Below, one piece after another: positions 2,984 to 19,391 of a stretch of DNA of 28,502 bases. The translations under genes were made by a program, and so were the position numbers. The first letter of the stretch is position 1, and the number at the start of each line of letters is the position of its first letter. Location of the stretch: the IMG/VR virus record IMGVR_UViG_3300012664_000083, positions 1-28,502 of that record. One strand, given 5' to 3'. Under the pieces are notes generated by a model that ran no database searches, was not told the origin of the DNA, and saw nothing but the letters and a program-made list of their open reading frames with translations. The DNA comes from a virus (lineage: Duplodnaviria; Caudoviricetes).

Positions 2984-3649
2984 ATGAGTAGAAACGGTAG
3001 CGGTACATATACACTCCCTGCTGGCAATCCAGTAGTTTCGGGTACAACAATTAGCTCTGCATGGGCTAATACAACCCTTAATAACATCGCTGCTGCGCTT
3101 ACTGACTCATTAGCTGCTGATGGTCAAACAACGGCTACAGGCAACCTTAAAATGGGTAATAACCGCATTACTGGGTTAGCCGATGGTATTGCAGATACAG
3201 ACGCTGCAAGTTTAGGCCAAGTAAACACTATTGTCGGAGATTATGTCCTTGTTTCAGATATTGGCGTAACTGTAGAAGCCTACAACACACATATTGTTAA
3301 AGACAATGTAGTGTCAGATTTTACAAAACAACAGTATTTTGGCAATGTAGCGTTAACTGATGCTACGACTATTGCTTGGAACGCTGAAACTGCCCAAGTA
3401 GCTACTTTTACCTTTGTTAGCTCAAATCGTACAATGGGTGCGCCAACCAATTTAGTAAGCGGAGCATACTATGGTCTTGCTATAATTCAAAATGCTGGCA
3501 GTAATACTTTGACATGGGATTCTGTGTTTAAGTGGACTGGCGGTACAGCACCAACGCTATCTACAGCAGCAGGCGCAAAGGATTACTTTGTGTTTAGAAG
3601 TGATGGCACGAATATGTATGAACAAGGTCGCTCACTAGGGGTTTCTTAA
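2984..3649 (+). CDS. Tail fibre anchor/adaptor protein, 221 aa
   Basis: GGAG RBS. N-terminus MSRNGSGTYTLPAGNPVV..TTISSAWAN..DGQT..LKMG..ITGL is typical of podovirus tail-attachment domains. C-terminal 109 aa shared with 23779-25935. Confidence 0.75.
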   Translation: MSRNGSGTYTLPAGNPVVSGTTISSAWANTTLNNIAAALTDSLAADGQTTATGNLKMGNNRITGLADGIADTDAASLGQVNTIVGDYVLVSDIGVTVEAYNTHIVKDNVVSDFTKQQYFGNVALTDATTIAWNAETAQVATFTFVSSNRTMGAPTNLVSGAYYGLAIIQNAGSNTLTWDSVFKWTGGTAPTLSTAAGAKDYFVFRSDGTNMYEQGRSLGVS

Positions 3650-6243
3650 TGACTTTACCTGTCGTATTTACAGCTAATGGGCCGTCAGGCTATAACTTAA
3701 CTAAATCTTTAAGGTTTAGAGGTAGTGCTTCTGCAACTTTAAGCCGCACTCCTGCTAGTGCTAGTAATCAACAAAAATGGACTTTAAGCACATGGGTTAA
3801 GCGTGGCACAATTTATGATGCAACATTAGATAACTATATATTTGGTGCTGGTTCTTCAGGTAGTAACAGGTTTTTATTTGGATTTGGAAATACTACAGAA
3901 AATTTAGCGGTCGTTGCTACAAATAGTGGCTCAAATGTCCTTATTTTAAATACAACCCCAGTTTATCGTGACCCATCAGCTTGGTATCACATGGTTTTGG
4001 CAATAGATACAACCCAAGCAACCGCATCAAATCGTGCAATTTTGTATGTAAATGGAGTGCAAGTTACTGCATTTTCAACAGCAACATACCCAGCACAAAA
4101 TACTAATTTGGTAGTAAACGCTACTAATGCCCATGCTTTTGGTAGCAGAGGTTATGCGGCTTCAGATTATTACGATGGCTACATGACTGAAATCAACTTT
4201 GTTGATGGTCAGCAATTAACTCCATCTTCATTTGGCTCTACAAACGCATTAACAGGTGTATGGCAACCAGCTAAATACACAGGCACTTATGGCACTAATG
4301 GCTTTTATTTACCATTTACAGACAATTCTGCAACTACTCCAGTAGGACTAGGTAAAGATTTTTCAGGCAACTCTGGCACAGCTATTGTAGGCACAACCAC
4401 AAGTGGCTCTAATTCAATGACAGTAGTGTCTTTAACTGGCATTTCTGTAGGCAATACTGTAACTGGACCTGGCATACCAACCGGAACTTATGTAACTGCT
4501 GCTTCAGTATTAACAGTAACTTTATCGCAAAACGCTACAAGCTCTAATGTAAGTCAAAGCTACACTTTTGCTGGCAATAACTGGTTTTGCAACAATATTA
4601 GCTTAACTGCTGGTAGCACTTACGATTCAATGACTGATGTACCTACATTGACAAGTGCAACAACAGGTAACTTTTGCACATGGAATCCACTTACAAAATG
4701 GCGAGGCACATTGTCAAACGGCAATCTGTCTATGTCAGGTACTGCTGGTGACACAACTGGAACAATGTCATTAACTGGTGGCAAATGGTATTACGAATGC
4801 ACCATTCTTGGCGGTACAAATGAACATAACATTGGATTTGCTACATCAAGCGTTGGTGCGTCAGCTTCTGCTGGCTCTGGAATTAGAGGTGCTGGCTCTT
4901 ATGTTATTTATTCATTCAATGGCATATTTTATAATAGCGGTTCAGCAAGCTCATCGCTAACAACCTTTGCCGCAAATGATGTAGTAATGCTTGCTTATGA
5001 CGCTGATAACGCAAAGATTTATGTTGGTAAAAACGGCACTTGGTTAAATAGTGCTGTACCAGCTTCAGGCACAGGTGCGGTATCAACAACTGCAACTGCT
5101 CCATTAAATCCTATTTATCAATTTGATTCAGGCAATGCAACTGGTTGCAATACTAACTTTGGTCAGCAACCATTTACCTACACTCCGCCTACTGGTTTTA
5201 ACGCACTCAATACTTATAACTTACCTACTAGCACTATTGTTAAAGGTAGCCCTAATTTTGATGTAAGTTTATATACTGGTACTGGTGCTACTCAAACAAT
5301 TACAACAAACGCACAATTAGCGAATGGTGCGTTAATTTGGACTAAAACAAGAAGTAACGCAGTTAACTGGGACACTCGCTCAACAGGAATGACAAATAAT
5401 TACTCATTCTTGCAAAGCAATACTACTAACGCTGAAGAAACAACGGCAACTCAATATGCTATGACATTTAGTAATGGTAGCTATACAGTTGGTGCTGGCG
5501 ATAATATTAACCAAAGCACAAGAACATTTGTGGGTTATCAATGGGCTTTAGGTTCTGCTGTATCAAATACTGCTGGTTCTATTACTTCTTCAGTTCAAGT
5601 TAATGCTTCTGCTGGGTTTAGTGTAGTTACTTATACAGGTACAGCCGCAAACGCTACTGTAGGGCATGGGTTGGGCGTTGCTCCTAGTATGGTAATTGTA
5701 AAACGCAGAGATTCAACATCAAATTGGCCCTCTTATCACAAGTCTTTAGGGGCAACTGATGGAATTTATCTTAATTTAACAAACGCAACAACAGCTTCAA
5801 CTTTATTTTGGAATGATACTGCTCCAACAAGTTCAGTATTTTCTCTTGGGTCTGGGTCTGGAACAAATGCAAGTGGTGGAACTTATGTAGCCTATTGCTG
5901 GTCACCTATTGCTGGTTATTCTGCTATGGGTAGCTATACAGGTAATGGTTCTACTGATGGCCCATTTGTATATACAGGGTTTAAGCCTAAATTTGTGATG
6001 TTTAAGCGTACAGATTCTACTGGTTCTTGGCATATATTTGATTCTTCAAGAAACCCATATAATTTGACTGATTTAAATTTATACGCAAACGGAACAAATA
6101 CTGACACTCAAAACAATCAAATTGATTTGTTAAGCAATGGCTTTAAATGCAGAAGCTCTGATACCGATGACAATGCTAGTGGCGGTACAGTTATTTACAT
6201 GGCATTTGCCGAAAACCCCTTTAAAAACGCTTTAGCGAGGTAA
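3649..6243 (+). CDS. Receptor-binding/tail protein with concanavalin-A-like (LamG) and SPRY-like domains, 864 aa
   Basis: Motifs SLRF..WTLSTWVKRG, YRDPSAWYH, YDGYMTEINFVDG, GKWYYE, NFGQQPF, VGHGLGVAP, YTGNG..GPFVYTGFKP, YMAFAENPF; Thr/Ser/Gly-rich beta composition. Confidence 0.8.
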   Translation: MTLPVVFTANGPSGYNLTKSLRFRGSASATLSRTPASASNQQKWTLSTWVKRGTIYDATLDNYIFGAGSSGSNRFLFGFGNTTENLAVVATNSGSNVLILNTTPVYRDPSAWYHMVLAIDTTQATASNRAILYVNGVQVTAFSTATYPAQNTNLVVNATNAHAFGSRGYAASDYYDGYMTEINFVDGQQLTPSSFGSTNALTGVWQPAKYTGTYGTNGFYLPFTDNSATTPVGLGKDFSGNSGTAIVGTTTSGSNSMTVVSLTGISVGNTVTGPGIPTGTYVTAASVLTVTLSQNATSSNVSQSYTFAGNNWFCNNISLTAGSTYDSMTDVPTLTSATTGNFCTWNPLTKWRGTLSNGNLSMSGTAGDTTGTMSLTGGKWYYECTILGGTNEHNIGFATSSVGASASAGSGIRGAGSYVIYSFNGIFYNSGSASSSLTTFAANDVVMLAYDADNAKIYVGKNGTWLNSAVPASGTGAVSTTATAPLNPIYQFDSGNATGCNTNFGQQPFTYTPPTGFNALNTYNLPTSTIVKGSPNFDVSLYTGTGATQTITTNAQLANGALIWTKTRSNAVNWDTRSTGMTNNYSFLQSNTTNAEETTATQYAMTFSNGSYTVGAGDNINQSTRTFVGYQWALGSAVSNTAGSITSSVQVNASAGFSVVTYTGTAANATVGHGLGVAPSMVIVKRRDSTSNWPSYHKSLGATDGIYLNLTNATTASTLFWNDTAPTSSVFSLGSGSGTNASGGTYVAYCWSPIAGYSAMGSYTGNGSTDGPFVYTGFKPKFVMFKRTDSTGSWHIFDSSRNPYNLTDLNLYANGTNTDTQNNQIDLLSNGFKCRSSDTDDNASGGTVIYMAFAENPFKNALAR

Positions 6244-10358: not shown

Positions 10359-10573
10359 TAAGCTACCCTCGCTCTATATTCGTAACAGGCTTCACGGGCA
10401 TCGTCTAAAAACTTATCCCATCCACCAAGGCTAATAATCATTTCCAATACATTAATGTCTGTATCGGTGATGTAGATTTCGCATATATCGTCATCGCCAT
10501 AGCCGTGTACATCAACAGATGTATCACCAACATATAACCAACCCATATACGGTGCTTTTTTGTGTTTTGTCAT
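10358..10573 (-). CDS. Hypothetical acidic protein
   Basis: AAGGGGAAA RBS at 10577-10585. Confidence 0.7.
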   Translation of the reverse strand: MTKHKKAPYMGWLYVGDTSVDVHGYGDDDICEIYITDTDINVLEMIISLGGWDKFLDDAREACYEYRARVA

Positions 10574-10594
10574 TTATTTCCCCTTAAAAACTGT

Positions 10595-10655
10595 AGTTTC
10601 TTGGTAATTGCAATGAGTGTCTATTATGACAAACCCTTAGTTGTGTATAAACAAC
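10595..10655 (-). promoter_or_regulatory. Putative activator-dependent promoter with upstream operator
   Basis: Minus strand: TAAGGGTTTGTCATAA box, -35 TAGACA (10618-10623), 17 bp, GAAACT (10595-10600). Inverted repeat GTTGT-N6-ACAAC at 10640-10655. Same layout recurs at 14172-14216. Confidence 0.55.
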
Positions 10656-10662
10656 AAAAAGG

Positions 10663-10693
10663 TGACCTACTCGTTTCTTTACACTTTCGGTCA
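10663..10693 (-). ncRNA. Hairpin with loop-E/sarcin-ricin-type internal loop (possible terminator or protein-binding site)
   Basis: UGACC-GAA-AG...CG-AGUA-GGUCA, followed by CCUUUUUG. Confidence 0.45.
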
Positions 10694-10699
10694 TTGTTA

Positions 10700-10758
10700 G
10701 GTGGGGGCGGTGCGCACGGACACACATGGTAGGCAGAAGGGGAAACCACCTCGCCCCC
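10700..10758 (-). ncRNA. tRNA-like three-way-junction RNA with anti-Shine-Dalgarno loop
   Basis: 7-bp GGGGGCG/CGCCCCC stem plus ACC 3' end; GGUGG/CUACC stem with loop UUUCCCCUUCUGC; GUGUG/CGCAC stem with UCCGUG loop. G-U pairs favour the minus strand. Confidence 0.6.
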
Positions 10759-10762
10759 GTTG

Positions 10763-11512
10763 TTAGTTTAGCTTATTTTTAAGTTTGTATAAGCCTAAAA
10801 GATGTAAAAACATTTGATAGCCGTCACGCAAGTCTTGCTCATCATGCTCATAGATTGCTACCTCACCTGTAGTGCCATTAATATACACATTTGCACAGCG
10901 TGCTGTAGGGGCTAAAACCTCACGATAAGCAGCTAATTGCATGGTATGCTCAGTATAGGGTGTTAATTCACCAGGGGATTTTTCCGTAGTCTTGAAGTCA
11001 ATTACGACCCCACTAAAGTCATGGCGTGCTTTGCAATACAAATCGCACTTACCGCCATATCCTTCTTGTGCGTTAACTAATGACTGCTCTGGAATCCATA
11101 ACTGAGCGCCAAAATGAGCTGTTACGGCCTCATCGACTGCTCGAACATACGCTGGCATATCCGGCACAAATTCATTGTTATAGAAGCTTTCAATCCAATC
11201 ATGGATAAGTGTGCCTCGGTCTGCTGCTTCACGGCTTTTACGCTTGGCTAGGTCAAGAATACGACTGATGTATTCTTTCTCATCTTCACCATCTAGGCGA
11301 GGATTAGCAAGCGTGGCGTGCAATACTTCTGTTTGTTTCCATGTATCAAGGCCTGCTTTTGATAGCTGTCCGTTAATTGTTGATACGCTTGGCACAAGTG
11401 TGCCTGGTGCTGACTTGGCATCTCGAAGCGTAGTGCTTCTTTCTTTGCCGTTTTTACCAATGGTTGTATAGCGTGGCGCTCCTGTTTGGGCGCAATACCA
11501 ATGCTCTGACAT
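10763..11512 (-). CDS. PD-(D/E)xK exonuclease (lambda-exo/Cas4-like superfamily)
   Basis: PSVSTI, RGTLIH, E..L, YGGKCDL, VIDFKT, QLAAY motifs; AAGGGGAAA RBS; clustered with ERF and SSB-like genes. Confidence 0.85.
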   Translation of the reverse strand: MSEHWYCAQTGAPRYTTIGKNGKERSTTLRDAKSAPGTLVPSVSTINGQLSKAGLDTWKQTEVLHATLANPRLDGEDEKEYISRILDLAKRKSREAADRGTLIHDWIESFYNNEFVPDMPAYVRAVDEAVTAHFGAQLWIPEQSLVNAQEGYGGKCDLYCKARHDFSGVVIDFKTTEKSPGELTPYTEHTMQLAAYREVLAPTARCANVYINGTTGEVAIYEHDEQDLRDGYQMFLHLLGLYKLKNKLN

Positions 11513-11534
11513 AAATTTCCCCTTATTTGTAGCA

Positions 11535-11998: not shown

Positions 11999-12010
11999 GT
12001 CATATTCCCC

Positions 12011-12451
12011 TTAAATTTCTTTAGGTTTAACTACTGCTGGTTTAGATTGTGGATTGCTGGCAGCATTGCCATCGTCATCCGCTTGCACTACTCCTACTAC
12101 TGCTGCTAATGCGTATCTACGCATATAAGTTAAAGCTGACCCAGCGCCTTGTGCGTCTGCTTTAGTAACCGGTACAGACATCTCTTGACTAAGGTATTCG
12201 CCAGACTTGTGGCTAATTACTGTAGTCAATGACATAGATTTGTCATGGTCTGTATAAAGCCCTGGAAACTGCATAACTGCTAGGCCATTTTCAGCTAACA
12301 AGCTACGGCAAGCATCCCATACAGACTCAAGGTCAGCGTATTTAGACTTAAAAAATGGATTGGCAGAGTCTTTAACGGCATGGGACATTTTGCCTTGCAC
12401 GATTGACAAAGCCAATGTTAGGTTAGCAATGCTTTCTGATTGATTAATCAT
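12011..12451 (-). CDS. erf: ERF-family single-strand annealing protein
   Basis: KDSANPFFKSKYADL, HKSGE, QGAGSALTYMRRYAL...DDDG signature. Confidence 0.92.
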   Translation of the reverse strand: MINQSESIANLTLALSIVQGKMSHAVKDSANPFFKSKYADLESVWDACRSLLAENGLAVMQFPGLYTDHDKSMSLTTVISHKSGEYLSQEMSVPVTKADAQGAGSALTYMRRYALAAVVGVVQADDDGNAASNPQSKPAVVKPKEI

Positions 12452-12651: not shown

Positions 12652-12670
12652 CTAAATTCCCCTTAGATAA

Positions 12671-12777
12671 ATAGCAAAATTGCTATAAGTAAGACTTTAA
12701 CATAACTTAAAACAGTTTTGCAAATATATTTTTAAGCGTTGTATTTACACACTTTGTCGTGGTAAGATTACTTCACT
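12671..12777. promoter_or_regulatory. Divergent sigma70-like promoter region (PL/PR-like)
   Basis: Leftward TTGCAA-18-TAAAGT and rightward TTGTAT-18-TAAGAT, both with extended -10 TGn. Palindrome ATAGCAA-AA-TTGCTAT at 12671-12686. GTTGT-N6-ACACT over the rightward -35. Confidence 0.6.
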
Positions 12778-13044
12778 ATGAATATAAAACTAACCGAACA
12801 CGCATTACTTCAACTATTGGGTGGCACAGTTAAAGTCGCAAAGATGTGCGATGTAGAGCCAGCAGCCGTGTCCCAATGGCGTAAAAACGGCATACCAAGG
12901 GAGCAATTATTGTTTCTTGGAGCCAGAATTGAAAAAGAAAGTCATGGCTTAGTCACTCGTCAAGACTTATTTCCAAACAACTTTTGGTTAATTTGGCCTG
13001 AGTTACTTAAAAACAACGCATTTGGAGCGCAAGACGATGAGTGA
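12778..13044 (+). CDS. Cro/YdaS-like HTH transcriptional regulator
   Basis: LGGTVKVAKMCDVEPAAVSQWRKNGIP HTH and VTRQDLFP..W.IWPEL tail; first rightward gene; no RBS, possibly leaderless. Confidence 0.85.
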   Translation: MNIKLTEHALLQLLGGTVKVAKMCDVEPAAVSQWRKNGIPREQLLFLGARIEKESHGLVTRQDLFPNNFWLIWPELLKNNAFGAQDDE

Positions 13045-13876
13045 CCCATTTGAAATATTAGAGCCAACAGTAATTAGCTTTAGCGGTGGTCGCACTTCAG
13101 CTTATATGCTTTGGAGGATATTGCAATCAAATAATGGGCTTCCAGAAGAAGCTATTGTTACTTTTGCAAATACAGGTAAAGAAGAAGAAGCTACGCTTGA
13201 ATTTGTAAGGGATTGCGGTAAAAACTGGGGCGTTGACATTCATTGGGTTGAATACCAACACGCTGAAAAACCAGCAGACCGTTGGAAAAAAGTTAACTTT
13301 GAAACTGCAAGTCGTAATGGCGAACCATTTTTTGATTTAATAGACCAAAACGGCTCATTATACCTTCCAAACCCAGTAGCTAGGATATGCACCGCCAAAC
13401 TTAAAATTCGCACCATACACGCTTATTTAAAGGCTTTAGGGTGGAAACATAACGAGAACATGGATTGGGTTGGTATTCGTGCCGATGAAATGCGTAGGGC
13501 TGCAAAAATGGACAGGGAGCGCACTCCATTGGTAACGGCTGGTGTTACCAAAGAAACTGTAGGTAAATTCTGGAAAGAGCAGTCTTTTGATTTGGGTCTG
13601 CCAAATATGAATGGCGTAACCATGCACGGAAACTGCGATTTATGCTTTTTAAAGCCTACACATCAAATTATTAGCCTAATTAGAGAAAAGCCTGAAAGGG
13701 CTGATTGGTGGATTAAGATGGAATCTCATGCCAATTCAAGCAATAAAACTTATGGTGACGGGGCAAAGTTTCGTAAAGACCGCCCAAGTTATGCAGAATT
13801 AAAGAAGTTTGCATTATCCCATGACGATATGTTTCCTACAGATGAGGAAGGTATACCTTGTTTTTGCGGTGACTAA
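13037..13876 (+). CDS. PAPS-reductase-family (PP-loop, CysH/DndC-like) protein; start revised to ATG 13037
   Basis: SFSGGRTS PP-loop, FANTGKE, R.CT..LK, GIRADE, NCDLCFLK, terminal CFC; GGAG RBS at 13024-13027. Confidence 0.85.
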   Translation: MSDPFEILEPTVISFSGGRTSAYMLWRILQSNNGLPEEAIVTFANTGKEEEATLEFVRDCGKNWGVDIHWVEYQHAEKPADRWKKVNFETASRNGEPFFDLIDQNGSLYLPNPVARICTAKLKIRTIHAYLKALGWKHNENMDWVGIRADEMRRAAKMDRERTPLVTAGVTKETVGKFWKEQSFDLGLPNMNGVTMHGNCDLCFLKPTHQIISLIREKPERADWWIKMESHANSSNKTYGDGAKFRKDRPSYAELKKFALSHDDMFPTDEEGIPCFCGD

Positions 13877-14216: not shown

Positions 14217-14256
14217 GTAATCACTCAATAACGAGTAAACATTTAAGGGGAATTAA

Positions 14257-15112: not shown

Positions 15113-15291
15113 GGTATTTGTGCCATTTACGGCATAAAAAAGGTTTGACTTGGTTTCGTATATACATCAGCGAAAAAAACTTTAGTCAAGCATTGTTAAA
15201 CGACTTCTATGACCAATGGAAGCTAGGTAATAAAGGGGAATGGGGATGTTGGAAAAATACATTGTCGCAGCAACAGGGCTTGGGTATTTAG
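15079..15291 (+). CDS. Hypothetical protein
   Basis: Tiles the operon; RHEC.VR and QW..GN.G..G.W motifs. Confidence 0.55.
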   Translation: MYEKARHECGVRYLCHLRHKKGLTWFRIYISEKNFSQALLNDFYDQWKLGNKGEWGCWKNTLSQQQGLGI

Positions 15292-18698: not shown

Positions 18699-18711
18699 TA
18701 AATTCCCCTAT

Positions 18712-19031: not shown

Positions 19032-19391
19032 ATGAATGACAACATGGCAATGTTTGCTGCTACGATGCTGCATAGCGCTACTAATACCCATTTTTTCCAT
19101 TGGAATACTGATTCTTTTTCTAAGCACATGGCTTTGGGAGAGTATTACGAGGAAATCGTGGAATTGGTAGATGACCTAGTAGAATCTTACATGGGTTGCT
19201 ATGAGCAGATTAAAACATTCCCAAGCGTCTATCACCAGCCTAAAGAAGCTGTTAAGTATATGGAATCATTGAAAAATTTTGTAGATGATGCCCGTAAAGA
19301 TTTGCCGCAAGAAACACAAATTCAGAATATTATTGATGAAATAGCCCAGCTTATTGACTCTACCCTCTACAAACTACGCTTTTTGAAATAA
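19032..19391 (+). CDS. Dps/ferritin-like four-helix protein
   Basis: HFFHW, HMALGEYYE, D.LVE.YMG, TLYKL; GGAG RBS. Confidence 0.75.
   Translation: MNDNMAMFAATMLHSATNTHFFHWNTDSFSKHMALGEYYEEIVELVDDLVESYMGCYEQIKTFPSVYHQPKEAVKYMESLKNFVDDARKDLPQETQIQNIIDEIAQLIDSTLYKLRFLK

Follow-up and report, generated by a model that had tools for sequence, protein, structure and literature searches.

In a family of uncultured lake phages we find a small RNA element, module A, which folds into a three-way junction and presents in its open loop the complement of a ribosome-binding site (RBS) variant used by the phage itself. Module A is a real and uncatalogued phage RNA family, and the comparison of related sequences provides good support for a pairing with the phage's own RBSs. 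That loop and RBS have changed together in related phages points to a possible RNA brake by which the phage would curb the synthesis of its own early proteins.

The window, i.e., the whole stretch of 28,502 nt analysed here, is a linear virus record (28.5 kb, 41% G+C, 83% complete) with tail and lysis genes in its left part and terminase and portal genes in its right part. Its leftward early operon (12651 to 8795) comprises a first gene, Erf, an SSB-like gene, an exonuclease and small ORFs; a Cro-like gene (at 12778) and a replication initiator are further genes of the window. A likely early leftward promoter, TTGCAA-18-TAAAGT with TG (12694..12723, minus strand), was read by eye and is below the scan threshold; it is the presumed source of the module A transcript.

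Module A occupies positions 10700..10758 of the minus strand as a single copy in the window and starts 5 nt after the stop codon of the exonuclease gene (10763..11512, minus strand). According to the fold and to the copies in relatives, the outer stem P1 is formed by GGGGGCG (10752..10758) and CGCCCCC, the latter followed by an ACC tail (10700..10709); a putative RNase P cut would fall just before G10758. This 7-bp minus-strand stem with its 3' ACC, already noticed in a preliminary description made from the sequence alone, is present in the fold of 10758-10700. The same does not hold for the hairpin stem GGUGG/CUACC proposed there, which is in the wrong register (69.5% paired, no compensatory change). 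In the corrected register, stem P2 consists of AGGUGG (10746..10751) and CUGCCU (10731..10736), with 97% of cells paired and both-side changes in 3/6 pairs. It is this register that makes the loop (10737..10745) the exact 9-nt RBS complement UUUCCCCUU, in agreement with what had been claimed for these positions; 8/9 loop positions are unpaired at ≥0.97 in the ensemble. A junction ACCAU (10726..10730), of which most close relatives keep ACCA, leads to the side arm P3, GUGUG-UCCGUG-CGCAC (10710..10725), whose loop lies 13 bp from the 5' end, i.e., at the place of the tRNA T-loop. A pairing of the ACCAU junction with AUG was also considered and dropped, since CAU is not kept across subtypes.

On the minus strand, module A has an MFE of -27 kcal/mol (z -2.35, 4/200 shuffles as good), compared to z +0.11 for the plus strand of the region in the same fold test. 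The early-sense strand provides the better fold in 50/58 distinct sequences, with automatic boundaries off in about 9 of them. A plus-strand decoy or a DNA cruciform was rejected because G-U pairs favour the minus strand. For 12 window-type sequences, 99.1% of the cells of the structure are paired and 7 pairs are changed on both sides; none of 500 shuffles reached the covariation score, and slid controls were 45-59% paired. Two double changes in P1 stem from a one-base shift in three sequences and carry little weight; judged from the aligned copies, the both-side changes in P2 and P3 are genuine. Some subtypes of module A have only a bulge in place of the third stem. The motifs found in the side arm of the different clades are UCCGUG, UCACGGA, UCACGU, UACGUG and UUCAC. 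Of these, UCCGUG(A) is exactly complementary to UCACGGA, and most form part of the palindrome CACGUG, which may point to a kissing/dimerisation site or to a motif bound by a protein. When the side-arm motif was used for a DNA pattern scan, mostly chance matches were returned, the true ones being window-clade types.

A homologue of module A is found 3' of the exonuclease in 79/80 loci (the best 80 of 125 found; 77-99% identity), with 38 distinct sequences, and in the remaining one the contig ends 6 nt after the match. With a covariance model from the 12 window-type copies, the window yields a single copy, and two more are picked up in a clade of 46% exonuclease identity (E 5e-5 and 2e-4). The model does not detect the more diverged copies of clade X, which by comparison are related to module A in position, fold and loop. 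In all clades having the element, it is located 3' of the exonuclease stop or overlaps it. The latter is often seen in clade X (L219-L245, L360-L384), where the 5' stem of the RNA reaches back over the stop and the final codons of the exonuclease gene such that processing would truncate the exonuclease mRNA. In two loci (L032, L314), an inserted ORF (544 nt in L032) separates exonuclease and element, which is intact behind the ORF.

Beyond these clades, other structures follow the exonuclease. The distant locus L201 (46%) has an ACC-ended stem which we rejected, as its pyrimidine tracts mismatch the commonest RBS AUAGGUGAA; the window-type covariance model does not pick it up. Also rejected was the clade L204-L216, which has only a terminator-like hairpin, in some loci preceded by UUCCCCUU, and AGGAG-type RBSs. 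In the sister clade Z (L246-L311 except L249), different modules directly follow the exonuclease stop and contain CUCCUU or UUCCUU inside a UCCUUCACGGGA hairpin, with RBSs of AGGAG/AAGGA type; the stretch is possibly an anti-SD for this standard class, though sequestered in a stem.

Among the outcomes that, according to the preliminary description, would speak against it or against its novelty are a loop lacking conservation and a match to a known Rfam family. The loop is conserved, and no family matches module A in the window, in 17 close loci or in 7 further loci. Within the passages returned by a full-text literature search, no description of module A was found; it may be contained, unnamed, among the 8,495 IMG/VR candidate RNAs of PMC10690425 or in the supplement of PMC5737381.

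The sequence AAGGGGAA occurs 7 times in the window versus 0.67 +/- 0.89 times by chance (0/100 shuffles); one occurrence is the loop itself in plus-strand reading, and the other six are RBSs in front of start codons. On the minus strand, 9/9 matches to the loop are given by the RBS AAGGGGAAA of a 71-aa gene after the module array (10577..10585) and of the PD-(D/E)XK exonuclease (11516..11524). Eight nucleotides match for the SSB-like gene (12005..12012), and AAGGGGAA also serves as RBS (12657..12664) for the gene that opens the leftward early operon, the most consistently co-varying target, whose 67-aa protein has no match in Pfam, PHROG or atlas. On the plus strand, AAGGGGAA serves a 103-aa gene behind a Betaproteobacteria-1 RNA (14245..14252) and a short membrane-type ORF with likely start 15246 (15233..15240). 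A 7-nt match, AGGGGAA, is found for a metallophosphoesterase (18703..18709, minus strand). All of these sites had been correctly located in the preliminary description (10577, 11516, 12005, 12657, 14245, 15233, 18703).

Complementarity to the loop of at least 7 nt is found in 7/48 start regions, where 4 of the 48 coordinates are not at a start codon, and all 7 genes are non-structural, as had been stated. The accompanying view that structural genes mostly use GGAG, GAGG or AGGA is broadly right, apart from the virion genes at 3649 (UAGGGG) and 23779 (CGGGG) with their G-run sites. Among the 48 start regions, those of Erf, Cro and the replication initiator show no 7-nt match. A class of RBSs does match the loop, but given only 7/48 matched regions it does not comprise all early genes. 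In terms of energy, there are two near misses, one at the initiator (-11.0 kcal/mol) and one at some distance upstream of the holin start (-10.6). For the seven sites we obtain -11.5 to -12.8 kcal/mol with the loop and -6.4 to -7.9 with an assumed host anti-SD 9-mer; these duplex energies leave out the cost of pairing into a 9-nt loop. A second specificity site of the C4 a' type was rejected, as side-arm complements near targets are at chance level: within -80..+60 of target starts, the longest complement averages 5.28 nt for the own arm (148 regions) versus 5.31 for foreign arms.

To compare loop and RBS between clades, further clades were sampled via the exonuclease, genes were clustered by BLAST, and loci closer than about 97% were removed. 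Starts for the RBS counts were chosen by a host-type SD score, i.e., independently of the loop. Three joint shifts of loop and RBS are observed, namely UCCCUUU/AAAGGGAA, UCCCCUAA/UUAGGGGAA and UUCCCCCGA/UCGGGGGAA. When the first-gene RBS of non-redundant loci is compared with loop cores (match of at least 7 nt), 42/46 window-clade loci match UUCCCCUU. In the clade with the CCCCCGA loop (UUCCCCCGA), the own core UCGGGGGAA is matched in 9/9 and the window core in 0/9 loci; the 3-C clade has its own AAAGGGA in 4/4 and the window core in 0/4. The loop-less sister clade Z matches no core at all (0/46) and uses AGGAG or GAAAG. The exonuclease RBS behaves alike, with the own core present in 50/55 loci with 4-C loops (3-C core 1/55) and in 16/19 loci with 3-C loops (window core 1/19; at least one of the three misses, L382, is a mis-called start), and with 0/51 loop-core matches in clade Z. 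The predicted co-variation is thus seen as a co-change in three clades and as a joint absence of loop and RBS variant in the sister clade. A further clade, mostly fetched after the pattern had been seen, combines UUAGGGGA RBSs with CCCC(C)UA loops in 6/7 loci.

In an exonuclease tree of 69 rows, which omits most window-clade, Z and Q loci, each of the three shifts sits on its own branch. The evidence therefore amounts to three events plus the single locus L333, which combines CGGGGAAAA with UUUUCCCCG, and not to hundreds of independent observations.

The correspondence has exceptions. In the CCCCCGA clade, the exonuclease RBS is still AAGGGGAA (8/10), and window-type sites outnumber own-type sites (1.60 vs 1.10 per locus), so the loop there fits the first gene and not the commonest RBS class. 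The earlier expectation that each loop matches the dominant RBS of its phage consequently fails in some lineages. Phages with GAUCCCCCG loops have a window-type first-gene RBS in 3/4 non-redundant loci and another gene with a 9-nt match in 12/12 loci, ACCCCCUUU loops reach matches of 7-8 nt only, and in two loci (L242, L243) the loop has four C's although the first-gene RBS has three G's. One X-clade gene (family 91) still has four G's in the 3-C clade, and locus L351 has kept fold and RBS but lost the loop sequence. Within the window clade, the UAUCCCC and UUUCCCC loops do not track GGGGAU versus GGGGAA (first gene 3/8 vs 11/35). We consider a functional pairing of loop and RBS, of whatever kind, to be likely.

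How the RNA would be released was assessed by its likeness to tRNA. ARAGORN reports no tRNA gene and RF00005 does not match, so the tRNA cloverleaf with its D-arm and anticodon arm is absent. In 47/49 copies, the 5' end and the loop of the side arm are separated by a helix of 11-15 bp (13 in the window), irrespective of the shares that P1 and P3 have in it, which corresponds to the acceptor-plus-T helix of about 12 bp in a tRNA-like RNase P substrate. The T-arm-like hairpin of the preliminary description exists, but its 6-nt loop UCCGUG is no canonical T-loop; among the copies no canonical 7-nt T-loop is found, the other loops being AUCACGGA, CUUCACAC or bulges such as AUACGUG. An ACC 3' of the stem is present in 43/53 copies, as ACCU (also in the window) or ACCC and never as ACCA; a completion of the 3' end by trimming and CCA addition is possible. 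The tRNA mimicry of module A is partial: the helix, the 3' ACC and, in 3 loci, a real tRNA in the same array are in line with it, but there is neither a canonical T-loop nor an encoded CCA.

Module A heads an array of further ACC-ended modules, B and C, which have no anti-RBS loop. Module B (10661..10693, minus strand) has a short closing stem, a GAAA/AGUA internal loop, which we take to be a loop-E, a variable insert and an ACC end; it is found in 15/52 window-clade and 34/51 Z loci. Its inserts in relatives range from about 10 to about 100 nt (L012, L022, L035, L058), and the module looks like a processing scaffold for variable cargo. Module C is absent from the window and present in 44/52 window-clade and 37/51 Z loci. 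In L001 (about 3974-4058) it spans ~85 nt, starts with GGGCGUUAAGCCGCC, ends with AAAUACAGCCC and is built from nested stems; by eye it has a likely GCCGC/GCGGC pseudoknot. It seems to exceed module A in complexity and has no Rfam match in the 17 related loci scanned. Three loci contain a true tRNA-Asn inside the array, 111-128 nt behind the exonuclease stop. All this fits a polycistronic cluster that would be processed like tRNAs. Two public runs matched the stretch (shares 0.06 and 0.05), as contigs at depth 2-7: the run on record as RNA yields 3 pieces on the stretch, none of them over the element, while in the second, whose RNA label is a guess, the contig of a relative covers it.

Pairing could also take place in cis and without excision, i.e., the element could act as a 3' structure within the early mRNA, folding back on RBSs of its own transcript (those of first gene, SSB, exonuclease and next gene) and causing silencing or decay. 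Both 9/9 sites indeed flank the element on its own strand, and 4/7 matched sites lie within the leftward operon, whose first gene is also the most consistent target. Nevertheless we regard this as unlikely. The RBS at 14245..14252 is on the opposite strand and can be reached only in trans, and opposite-strand sites co-vary as well: gene family 102 has AAAGGGAA with 3-C loops (4/4) and AAGGGGAA with 4/5-C loops (7/7), which favours action in trans. Furthermore, the ACC ends, the conserved helix length and the real tRNA in the array point to processing, and in the MFE structure computed for 10561-10765 the loop is free, with no pairing to the 10577 site.

Somewhat less probable still is a purely structural element for RNA processing or stabilisation (tRNA mimic, nuclease barrier, decoy) whose C-rich loop binds a protein or was copied from RBS sequences, with no functional pairing. 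Such a reading could draw on the ACC-ended neighbours without anti-RBS loop (B in 15/52, C in 44/52 window-clade loci), on the retained fold of L351, on the encoded Erf and exonuclease, which could copy short motifs, and on the T4 tRNA region with its two RNAs of unknown role (PMC3014915). Two observations argue against it. Inside clades the loop is fixed while its stem varies freely, and the bases flanking the C-run on either side shift in step with several RBS copies at once.

That the main targets lie outside the phage, i.e., are host mRNAs with G-rich SDs or competing related phages, and that the match to the own RBSs is a by-product of common RBS habits, appears improbable. Toxic small RNAs exist in Betaproteobacteria and may act in an anti-SD mode. 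As far as the published account goes, these RNAs (RF02278) are toxic when cloned in E. coli and of unknown function (PMC4603805); they are chromosomal and come with terminators, whereas module A has no RF02278 match and its loop follows the phage's own RBS. Some loops do fit the commonest RBS of their phage imperfectly, and the CUCCUU or UUCCUU of the clade Z modules resembles a general anti-SD. On the other hand, a weapon should select for escape of the own RBSs, yet these track the loop in three clades, and loops such as UUCCCCCGA are unlike a copy of a host anti-SD.

Very improbable, finally, is a loop that pairs without repressing and instead serves as the phage's own stand-in for the anti-SD, which would label or protect phage mRNAs or bring ribosomes to them for preferential translation: covariation shows pairing and not its sign, and the matched genes head early transcription units where strong expression is expected, but the G-run of every RBS dialect can wobble-pair with a CCUCC-type anti-SD so that no substitute is needed, covering the SD in an unstructured A/U-rich leader normally shuts out the 30S subunit, and P2 seems too short for an anticodon-arm role.

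The comparison shows that the structure is conserved, on which strand it forms, that loop and RBS are exactly complementary and that their changes are correlated across clades. On this basis we infer, with a confidence slightly above even, that module A is a processed antisense RNA which provides delayed negative feedback on early translation. It would be transcribed along with the leftward early genes, and host tRNA-processing enzymes, presumably RNase P, would release it from the small-RNA cluster as a small stable antisense RNA. In the cell, its open loop would pair with the private SD variant (AAGGGGAA here) of about seven early genes and block ribosome loading there, chiefly at the gene that heads its own operon and at the exonuclease. 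Since the stable RNA would accumulate while mRNAs turn over, early translation would be turned down after a delay; downstream genes may be affected by polarity. As a side effect, a later-entering related phage with the same RBS dialect would be hampered too.

Module A resembles C4 of P1/P7 in build and in RBS covering, but is not a member of the C4 family. As described, RNase P releases C4 from a longer transcript of the phage, and the b' loop of C4 covers an RBS (PMC5320573); changes in loop and target lead to heteroimmunity (PMC5320573, PMC12197685). Both RNAs have three stems in a junction and a loop complementary to a phage RBS (b'). Unlike C4, which addresses one temperate-phage operon with two loops (a', b'), module A has one loop for about seven dispersed RBSs, no second site, and 0 RF01695 matches in the window at E up to 10. 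The CI RNA of P4 is described as processed from the transcript it controls and as pairing with that transcript (PMC4825925); an origin from the same transcript as the targets is likewise proposed for module A. However, P4 CI pairs with the adjacent seqA/seqC and causes premature termination in the lysogen, while the sites of module A are SD motifs up to 8 kb away on both strands. C4 and P4 CI are lysogeny RNAs of temperate phages; in contrast, 0/5 relatives of the window phage at 98-100% completeness have a tyrosine integrase (PF00589) or an S24, CI-type peptidase (PF00717). The immunity put forward as one option in the preliminary description is therefore unlikely to be a lysogenic one.

Other likenesses concern the targets. 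In T4, RegB switches off early genes through the common SD motif GGAG (PMC3014915, PMC1702504), i.e., an early-gene class is addressed via its SD as well; RegB is a cleaving protein, whereas module A is an RNA that would pair with a phage-private SD variant which differs by clade. The SAS of Cluster K mycobacteriophages is an extended phage-specific RBS motif in front of a gene subset, for which a partner RNA or protein was proposed (PMC3203893). The available text of that paper names no partner, whereas the phages with module A themselves encode a candidate RNA partner, which co-varies with the motif. In sequence, the two systems are unrelated. RNAC and RNAD of T4, small RNAs from the phage tRNA region with unknown role, can be seen as an analogue of the module array, likened by description only; the part of their description available in PMC3014915 mentions no anti-RBS loop.

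A further-reading version is possible but rather doubtful. Here, module A would be a programmable RNA timer of apparently lytic phages, i.e., a tRNA-processed guide whose single loop addresses a private SD dialect and simultaneously shuts down the genes leading several early operons. Together with its dialect, the loop would drift into mutually non-interfering groups (AAGGGGAA, AAAGGGAA, UUAGGGGAA, UCGGGGGAA), forming RNA-defined exclusion groups without a repressor protein, and the neighbouring array modules would be further guides or effectors. Known phage antisense RNAs of similar build (C4, CI) act on one temperate-phage operon each. An RNA that acts on an entire private class of RBSs, and does so in a phage lacking integrase and CI, would, if true, be a new early-to-late control and would account for extended phage-specific RBS motifs such as the mycobacteriophage SAS. 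The natural loop/RBS pairs would be ready-made, mutually independent translational switches, and with four natural dialects the claim is testable in E. coli without the actual host.

Some further elements accompany the loop-matched genes. In the leader just before the first-gene RBS, a 16-nt hairpin AUAGCAAUUUUGCUAU is found (12671-12686, minus strand). A promoter-like site in front of the gene next to the array, TTTATA-17-CATAAT with TG (10623..10651, minus strand), overlaps an operator-like TAAGGG...CAT; it is weak, as the scan reports fewer sites than in shuffles. An imperfect palindrome of TAGGG...CCCTA type precedes two loop-matched genes (10639, minus strand; 14173, plus strand) and recurs after the array in many relatives; it is a candidate operator for the Cro-like protein.

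The relatives of the window phage are IMG/VR contigs of up to about 40 kb, and searches with exonuclease and portal found no cultured relative: outside the IMG/VR relatives, the closest exonuclease match (46%) is an uncultured podovirus from a spring, and the closest portal matches are at 32-39%. The single match in genome collections is a 4.8-kb contig in a Bacteroidetes bin, which is probably mis-binned. The Betaproteobacteria-1 RNA (RF02932; 13897-14020, plus strand; 93.7 bits), the only Rfam match within the window, is also present in 6/17 related loci scanned and hints at a betaproteobacterial host; phages of this kind presumably infect Polynucleobacter-like bacteria. It lies upstream of one loop-matched gene, that of 103 aa. 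PHROG matches further point to a PAPS-reductase-like gene (13022-13876) and a Dps/ferritin-like gene (19032-19391) in the window.
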